Of a stretch of 32,000 bases of DNA, positions 12,166-12,377 are shown piece after piece; positions within the stretch are counted from its first letter, which is position 1; every line of letters begins with the position of its first letter. The translations under genes were made by a program, and so were the position numbers. The notes beneath the pieces are model-generated. The model was not told the DNA's origin. It was given only the letters and a program-made list of their open reading frames with translations, and searched no databases. Source of the DNA: Geotalea daltonii FRC-32. GTDB taxonomy: Bacteria > Desulfobacterota > Desulfuromonadia > Geobacterales > Geobacteraceae. The stretch lies in the NCBI RefSeq assembly GCF_000022265.1, contig NC_011979.1, positions 570,001 to 602,000 on the forward strand. The letters are read 5' to 3'.

Positions 12166-12169
12166 AAAC

Positions 12170-12360
12170 GGTGATTGGTGATTGGTGATTAGTGATTAGT
12201 GATTAGTGATTAGTGATTGGTGACGGTGAAGCGGTGATTGGTGACGGTGAAGCGGTGATTAGTGACGGTGAAGCGGTGATTGGTGACGGGTGACTTCGAA
12301 CCTCGAACCTCGAACCTCGAACTTTGAACTTCGAACTTTGAACTTCGAACCTCGAACTTT
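12170..12360. repeat. Composite tandem-repeat block in the fliP-fliQ spacer (three arrays)
   Basis: (i) About 8 heptamers, GGTGATT/AGTGATT, at 12170-12228. (ii) Three copies of a 21-bp unit GGTGACGGTGAAGCGGTGATT at about 12226-12290. (iii) About 9 heptamers, TCGAACC/TCGAACT/TTGAACT, at 12295-12360. Confidence 0.9.
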
Positions 12361-12377
12361 TAGTTTCAGGAGAATTT

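Follow-up and report, generated by a model that had tools for sequence, protein, structure and literature searches.

The 212-nt spacer between fliP and fliQ in Geotalea daltonii FRC-32 consists almost entirely of tandem heptanucleotide repeats belonging to a family dispersed over the whole genome. This spacer is probably tolerated filler that passively uncouples fliQ from fliP. The analysed stretch of 32,000 nt, hereafter the window, corresponds to positions 570001–602000 of the complete 4.30-Mb genome, and the searches for family members were genome-wide. Many bacteria are rich in heptamer microsatellites, and the locus provides a clean example of one within an operon encoding proteins that assemble at a fixed stoichiometry.

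Anatomy of the spacer

The sequence-only reading had described a 212-nt gap full of tandem repeats between the two genes, and gene ends and TRF confirmed this for positions 12166–12377 of the window (Table 1). Its count of three arrays agrees with the three reported by TRF, but the unit families number only two, GGTGANN (A units) and NYGAACN (B units), as the 21-mer is a higher-order repeat of A units nested in the A array. At period 7, TRF reported GGTGATT at 12170–12286 and TCGAACC at 12296–12357 (8.9 copies).

Table 1. Features of the fliP–fliQ region (window coordinates unless stated otherwise)
Feature	Position	Strand	Detail or basis
fliP	11410..12165	+	Stop TAA at 12163–12165; Pfam PF00813, E = 1.5e-85
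AAAC linker from fliP stop to first repeat unit	12166..12169	+	Sequence
A array, 18 units with RGTGA core	12170..12294	+	TRF, core parsing
21-nt higher-order repeat, 3.7 copies, nested in A array	12213..12289	+	TRF
A/B junction, 33 nt	12276..12308	+	Identical at one other locus in this genome (1997608) and in the fliP–fliQ spacer of G043
B array, 9 TYGAACY units, GAAC cores at exact 7-nt spacing	12296..12358	+	TRF, core parsing
T-run, free-standing Shine–Dalgarno AGGAG (12368–12372) and 5-nt gap to ATG	12358..12377	+	Sequence
fliQ	12378..12647	+	Start ATG at 12378; Pfam PF01313, E = 4.3e-29
Spurious 94-aa ORF	12203..12487	-	No Pfam match; stop counts

The A array opens with three GGTGATT and four AGTGATT units and continues in blocks of GGTGAC/GGTGAAGC/GGTGATT. 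Its 18 GTGA cores are spaced at 7, 7, 7, 7, 7, 7, 7, 6, 8, 7, 6, 8, 7, 6, 8, 7 and 7 nt, with each 21-nt unit comprising three GGTGA-core units of 7 + 6 + 8 nt. The complete 21-mer is present in the genome at the fliP–fliQ locus only. An A-rich linker ending in C, similar to the AAAC found here, precedes the arrays at many other loci. The two arrays differ in base composition (A array: G 42%, C 6%; B array: C 32%, G 14%), and the B array is partially self-complementary via TTCGAA.

The sense strand of the spacer carries 26 stop codons, and the first stop in each frame lies at most 21 nt past the fliP stop. The antisense strand of the arrays contains very few stop codons. Because the complement of the arrays is nearly stop-free, the 94-aa antisense ORF is an artefact. 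Coding potential was accordingly rejected for both this ORF and a 107-aa plus-strand ORF, neither of which had a Pfam match and both of which are explained by repeat composition. The three-frame stops are real at the fliP–fliQ spacer, yet they are not a property of the class and were rejected as the purpose of the family: the GTTCGAN 5' arms of hairpin-type loci and the published units GGGAATC and GGGACCG are all stop-free.

A genome-wide family, its placement and its turnover

The genome-wide heptamer search found dozens of loci, supporting a possibility raised in the sequence-only reading, namely that the block belongs to a dispersed repeat family that tolerates this site. Patterns of three consecutive units matched the genome 84 times for A (reversed control: 6) and 84 times for B (reversed control: 0), and TRF returned 237 period-7 rows against 116 of period 8; the heptamer arrays are far from chance. 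The commonest period-7 units in the genome TRF output were AATCACC and AACYTCG. GGTGANN arrays occupied approximately 31 intergenic loci and NYGAACN arrays approximately 55, with A followed by B in constant order and orientation at 13 loci. In a second layout, GTTCGAN units lie opposite NTCGAAC units, forming a hairpin with an A-run on one side and a T-run on the other. Arrays across the genome comprise 3–11 units, without a peak at 4. The core positions GTGA and GAAC are less variable than the flanking positions in this genome; a universal GTGA core was rejected, since position 4 is the most variable one in the GGTGATT arrays of other phyla.

Two candidate identities were examined and set aside. 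A high-copy mobile cassette does not fit an exact A/B junction with just two copies in this genome and a single one in G043, the closest relative in the genome set. A HutP-type UAG-N4 site was likewise rejected, as PF09021 had no match in the complete genome while the Bacillus subtilis control was positive. The genome contains eight Y1 transposase matches (IS200/RAYT-like, PF01797; 1250169, 1144184, 1146858, 3577230, 4069575, 4070043, 4080395 and 314123), mostly in open frames of 220–330 aa, and none of these genes adjoins a listed array in a comparison of coordinates only.

Related units also occur in both rRNA operons between tRNA-Ala and 23S (2113619–2113949 and 3988575–3988874). There, AGTGATT units face AATCACC units to form a hairpin directly 5' of a boxA-like TGTTCTTTGACAA, at the place expected for a boxB stem, and a second hairpin follows with GAGTAAG/GAGTGAG units facing CCCTCAC.

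Placement was analysed for the 31 intergenic A loci outside the rRNA operons, using 3493 genes from a crude self-trained caller. In the 25 co-directional gaps, the array was sense to the upstream gene without exception (25/25, P = 3e-8), and divergent gaps held none (6.6 expected, P = 6e-4). The remaining six of the 31 loci lay in convergent gaps. Such gaps contribute approximately 21% of the intergenic bases outside divergent gaps, so that the number of A arrays at operon ends matches what the available space predicts. The G-rich strand was the leading strand at 28 of the 31 loci. At 24 of the 31, the array began between -9 and +9 nt relative to the upstream stop codon, and at about half of the loci this stop codon was itself the TGA or TAG of an array unit. 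B arrays finish approximately 10–20 nt upstream of the next start, followed by a T-run and then the Shine–Dalgarno (SD) sequence. Members of the heptamer family sit behind many housekeeping genes, at operon ends and in rRNA spacers. That the G-rich arrays are strictly sense and stop-anchored in this genome is a usable fact in its own right. In a crude test of 70 arrays from other phyla, the adjacent long ORF was sense in 28 cases and antisense in 6, a result given little weight because array stop codons sit on the sense strand alone and bias the test.

A comparison of repeat counts showed that the number of units is not invariant. In G043, the flanks of the locus are approximately 99% identical to those in this genome, whereas the A array is shorter by 98 nt and the B array by 35 nt, both multiples of 7 and equivalent to 14 fewer A units (4 vs. 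18) and 5 fewer B units. The remaining spacer of approximately 79 nt consists of two GGTGATT, GGTGACG, GGTGAC and four to five B units. These natural length variants (approximately 79 vs. 212 nt) between near-identical flanks are a ready test pair. When 14 GGTGATT sites of G043 were mapped to this genome, 12 were occupied in both, and copy number or the expanded variant unit differed at nearly all orthologous A sites. A 58-nt composite (AAAC, two GGTGATT, GGTGACG, GGTGAC and four B units) is found, with one base different, in the fliP–fliQ spacer of G043 and at an unrelated operon junction in this genome (ca. 1997600), and it is the one documented case of copying between loci. A metagenome scan yielded no near-identical strain and nothing closer than 90% FliQ identity.

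A separate difference was seen in the fliP gene of G043 (locus L017), which has a 1-nt deletion approximately 35 nt upstream of the stop codon (GGGG-CTG vs. GGGGACTG). The shifted frame closes at a TGA within the first repeat units. Either the 84%-complete genome contains an assembly error at this point, or the frameshift is real and is stopped by the three-frame stops of the array.

On a wider scale, two of the five genomes examined from the same genus carried GGTGATT arrays, as did 3 of 400 others from the phylum (reversed control: 0/401). Stretches of at least four perfect GGTGATT units numbered more than 120 across many phyla, with hosts including Nostocales, Pleurocapsa, Saprospiraceae, Xanthomonadales, Verrucomicrobiota, Planctomycetota, Bdellovibrionales (33 units) and others.

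The fliP–fliQ joint and explanations of the spacer

Pfam assigned the gene order fliK, flgD, a small flagellar gene, a flgE-like gene, fliL, fliM, fliN, fliO, fliP, fliQ, fliR and flhB, and the next called genes downstream of flhB are on the opposite strand. Neighbouring junctions are as tight as previously noted (fliN/fliO -4, fliO/fliP -4, fliQ/fliR +1), and fliR/flhB lies at +4. The SD-like sequences of fliN, fliO, fliP and fliR are located within the upstream coding sequence, and flhB has no visible one. Among these tightly linked genes, fliQ alone has its SD outside coding sequence (AGGAG, 5 nt before ATG). The segment from the fliP stop to the fliQ SD may therefore be the single point that tolerates insertion without altering an SD–start separation or a protein.

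Three junctions were surveyed at Geobacteraceae-like loci, drawn from 30 family genomes together with 80 metagenome contigs. The median fliP–fliQ spacer was 69.5 nt (range 8–310 nt; n = 106 loci), with 63 spacers of at least 40 nt. The medians for both fliQ–fliR (n = 99 loci) and fliR–flhB (n = 80 loci) were 6 nt, and spacers of at least 40 nt were found at seven and six loci, respectively. It had been argued from the fixed stoichiometry of FliP, FliQ and FliR that the spacer lies where translational coupling matters; this argument is weak because the conserved tight joints are fliQ–fliR and fliR–flhB, not fliP–fliQ. Across Geobacteraceae, fliP–fliQ is the length-free joint of the export-gate operon, owing to the free-standing SD, which is a second usable fact. 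The long spacers have unrelated content from lineage to lineage, for example 17 copies of CCTCGTT in L021, GGGACCG facing CCGGTCC in L028, AGGAGTC opposite TTCTGAA in L034 and, in other lineages, plain palindromes. Where the spacer is compact, it comprises the SD plus spacing alone (e.g., GGAGTTAGTA), and in the relatives L044–L046 it is 10 nt long.

Two genomes of the same genus (L020 and L021) and one metagenome locus (L047) have a long hairpin as their fliP–fliQ spacer, in which AGGAACG/AGGATAA units stand opposite as many as 17 CCTCGTT units, with z of -7 to -9 in the two genomes. The site therefore holds a differing unit family and layout inside one genus.

These observations are best explained by a tolerated filler that leaves fliQ passively uncoupled from fliP, a reading that is probably correct. 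The spacer is one locus of a genome-wide, probably transcribed heptanucleotide simple-sequence repeat (SSR) family, in which a G/U-rich GGTGANN array is anchored right after the stop codon and a C/A-rich NYGAACN array reaches the T-run and SD that precede the next gene. The site is the sole junction from fliM to flhB with the downstream SD outside the upstream coding sequence, and growth of DNA between stop and SD would be harmless to both genes because the SD of fliQ stands free of fliP. Array length changes in 7-nt steps, here also in 21-nt steps, presumably through slipped-strand mispairing or unequal recombination, and arrays are now and then copied from locus to locus. A ribosome leaving fliP would be halted in any frame within 21 nt, and fliQ would be translated without coupling to fliP, from a new initiation event at its own AGGAG. 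Changes in length would be largely tolerated, and therefore would not constitute a switch.

The arrays are probably close to neutral, although several observations argue against pure neutrality. Strict sense orientation and stop-anchoring exceed the expectation for a purely neutral repeat, and the less variable GTGA and GAAC cores of this genome and the self-folding of the A part (z -6.0; see below) also weigh against it. Moreover, a long spacer of unrelated content in many lineages could reflect selection for a spacer rather than tolerance.

The spacer is probably transcribed within the operon mRNA, judging from its position inside the operon and from the scan results: no plus-strand promoter or terminator was found in the spacer, and the single match in the promoter scan was a weak minus-strand promoter-like site at chance level. 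Searches against Rfam 15 gave no match at E ≤ 1 in 11900–12700 and none at gathering score in the whole window. Folding of the whole spacer was no better than that of shuffles (z -0.32 with flanks, -1.0 alone). Two specific structures were rejected: a hairpin formed by A-to-B pairing, given that the units are not complementary and the entire spacer is at shuffle level, and masking of the SD by the last B unit, for which there was only a weak local stem (z 0.0). 

A functional intercistronic RNA module is a conceivable but unlikely alternative. In such a module, the A array would guard the fliL–fliP message or hold terminating ribosomes just past the stop codon, either by folding or by capturing the 16S 3' tail or a protein specific for single-stranded RNA, and the B array would serve as an open leader or standby site for fresh initiation at fliQ. 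Unlike the whole spacer, the A part alone folded at -36.9 kcal/mol vs. -21.1 kcal/mol for its own shuffles (z -6.0), yielding wobble-rich hairpins with G-U and A-U pairs of the GAUU type that are possible in sense RNA alone. This fold is consistent with an RNA module, as are the sense orientation at all 25 co-directional loci, the recurrence at 13 loci of G/U-rich sequence past the stop and C/A-rich sequence ahead of the SD, the conservation of the cores relative to their flanks in this genome, and the significant hairpins (z < -2) in about half (29/61) of the fliP–fliQ spacers of at least 60 nt among the surveyed loci. Furthermore, the 16S 3' tail of this genome contains AUCACC, to which GGUGAU is exactly complementary; the match is stronger than for all 20 scored cyclic permutations of its composition and within the top 2.9% of all heptamers, albeit noticed post hoc. 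On the other hand, the frequency of A arrays at operon ends, which matches the expectation from space (6/31 in convergent gaps), speaks against a function linked to the gene downstream. G043 copes with 4 A units instead of 18, the GTGA core is not conserved in the GGTGATT arrays of other phyla, and hairpin-type and non-hairpin-type loci could not have a common structural function.

A more specific version, which we consider rather improbable, is that GGTGANN followed by NYGAACN forms a reusable, orientation-locked module whose unit number sets the expression step between cistrons, including fliP and fliQ. The A array, which stops all three frames, folds on itself in sense RNA alone and matches the 16S 3' tail, could then detain ribosomes that have terminated or recruit a protein specific for single-stranded RNA, and the C/A-rich open leader would feed the SD of the next gene. 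If the arrays did set cistron ratios, they would represent a new layer of operon tuning; otherwise, such spacers and their spurious antisense ORFs would be ordinary objects for annotators.

The main inference of the sequence-only reading, that repeat expansion or contraction modulates expression, corresponds to a contingency locus in which slippage switches or tunes fliQ–fliR–flhB, and hence motility, in populations. Flagella are a classic target of phase variation, which lends this idea general plausibility, and the 19 fewer units in the nearest relative are in line with it. We nevertheless regard it as very improbable. No repeat falls within a reading frame or separates promoter elements, and a change in unit number shifts the stop-to-SD distance alone. 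The family is also found behind many housekeeping genes and in rRNA spacers, and Rehm et al. reached an equal negative conclusion on their own heptamers (PMC4692102). Nothing points to the fliP–fliQ arrays as a dedicated switch.

Finally, polarity or attenuation, in which the C-rich B array would load Rho or the B fold with its T-run would act as a weak terminator, setting fliQ–fliR–flhB below fliL–fliP, can claim a C/G ratio of 1.6–1.8 in the B region (91st–96th percentile of the genome), 70% self-complementarity of B followed by TTTT, and 212 nt of untranslated RNA, but is scarcely credible in view of the empty plus-strand terminator scan, the weak B hairpin (z -1.1) that is not immediately beside the T-run, a B array just 63 nt long, and an A array that falls in the most G-over-C class of 78-nt stretches of the genome (0.01 percentile of C/G), a composition contrary to that at which Rho loads.

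Relation to known repeats and other features of the window

The fliP–fliQ arrays display the features by which heptameric intergenic SSRs are recognised (Mrazek 2007; Rehm et al. 2015), namely at least three head-to-tail units, dispersal and an excess of period 7, and their copy number and unit sequence vary among close relatives. Earlier accounts of heptameric SSRs include the STRR and Mrazek work, as cited by Rehm et al. (PMC4692102). The G-rich heptameric intergenic SSRs described in that study, GGGAATC in Xanthomonas and GGGGA(C/T)T in Nostoc, were left without an explained function (Rehm et al. 2015, PMC4692102). Like the arrays here, they are 7-nt tandem units that are dispersed over the genome, enriched in non-coding DNA and variable between close relatives. 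The GGTGANN arrays of this genome follow the same placement rules as GGGAATC/GGGGAYT, with stricter orientation: in Xanthomonas, sense and antisense placements of the G-rich strand are about equally frequent (PMC4692102), whereas it is strictly sense here. A second, C/A-rich unit family in fixed order behind the first is a further feature of this genome compared with those SSRs. The units also differ in their G-runs, with GGG there and GG at most here, and the AGTGATT variant has no G-run. A G-quadruplex reading (four or more tracts of at least three Gs, with a preference for four units) therefore does not transfer to this locus, which lacks GGG tracts and contains four AGTGATT units without a G-run.

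Multicopy heptanucleotide elements have also been described in the same bacterial family. In Geobacter metallireducens, from the sister genus, Gmet_H4## elements (GGGACCG) and class 3 sites (MTYCTGA) were proposed as DNA sites for global regulators (IHF/HU) or as regulatory RNAs (Aklujkar et al. 2009, PMC2700814). They resemble the present arrays as tandem heptamers at many intergenic and some intragenic places, and differ in unit sequences (PMC2700814). Units of exactly these types occur in the fliP–fliQ spacers of two relatives (GGGACCG type in L028, TTCTGAA type in L034). TAACTGA direct repeats are known from marine Beggiatoaceae, Cyanobacteria and Bacteroidetes, for which a post-transcriptional role was proposed (MacGregor 2015, PMC4679880). 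They share with the arrays here an intergenic location, a forward orientation relative to genes, in-unit stop codons and a patchy distribution across phyla (PMC4679880). The TAACTGA sets, however, hold 2–6 copies directly before start codons, over the position of the RBS, whereas here the A arrays are anchored to stop codons and the B array precedes a normal SD. Thus, the fliP–fliQ arrays are an ordinary member of a described class without an explained function (Rehm et al. 2015; MacGregor 2015; Aklujkar et al. 2009).

Identity with REP/BIME elements was rejected, since the B array shows only 70–74% self-matches (TTCGAA) and the locus has 7-nt tandem units and no 20–40-nt palindrome. REP/BIME intercistronic hairpins of the malE–malF type are palindromes of 20–40 nt that are transcribed inside operons. 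They resemble the present family in using co-directional and convergent gaps and avoiding divergent ones, and hairpins of this type are seen at the inverted-array loci of this genome and in many fliP–fliQ spacers of relatives. The STRR heptanucleotide repeats of Calothrix and heterocystous cyanobacteria occupy many intergenic sites, with several unit families per genome, and differ from the repeats here in unit sequences and lineage. MIRU-type mycobacterial minisatellites have units of 40–100 nt that are often read as small coupling ORFs. They too are variable-number tandem repeats within operons, running from a stop codon to the next start, whereas the units here are 7 nt long and rich in stop codons.

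The window contains another small B-type array at 7872–7899 (AGAACCC, AGAACAT, AGAACAT, AGAAC, then TTTT). It begins at the TAG stop of the small flagellar gene (7486–7872, PF12611) and is placed in a 110-nt gap upstream of the flgE-like gene.

Further downstream, the codon-usage caller rejected every ORF in a segment of approximately 4.7 kb (25228–29915), despite the presence of ORFs of 136–290 aa. Unrelated direct repeats are concentrated at 28.0–30.6 kb, including a 38-nt unit in three copies at 29519–29631, 24-nt units at 29495 and 30427, and motifs of 11–13 nt at 28038, 28120, 29687 and 30464. The region from 25228 to 30640 may represent foreign DNA.
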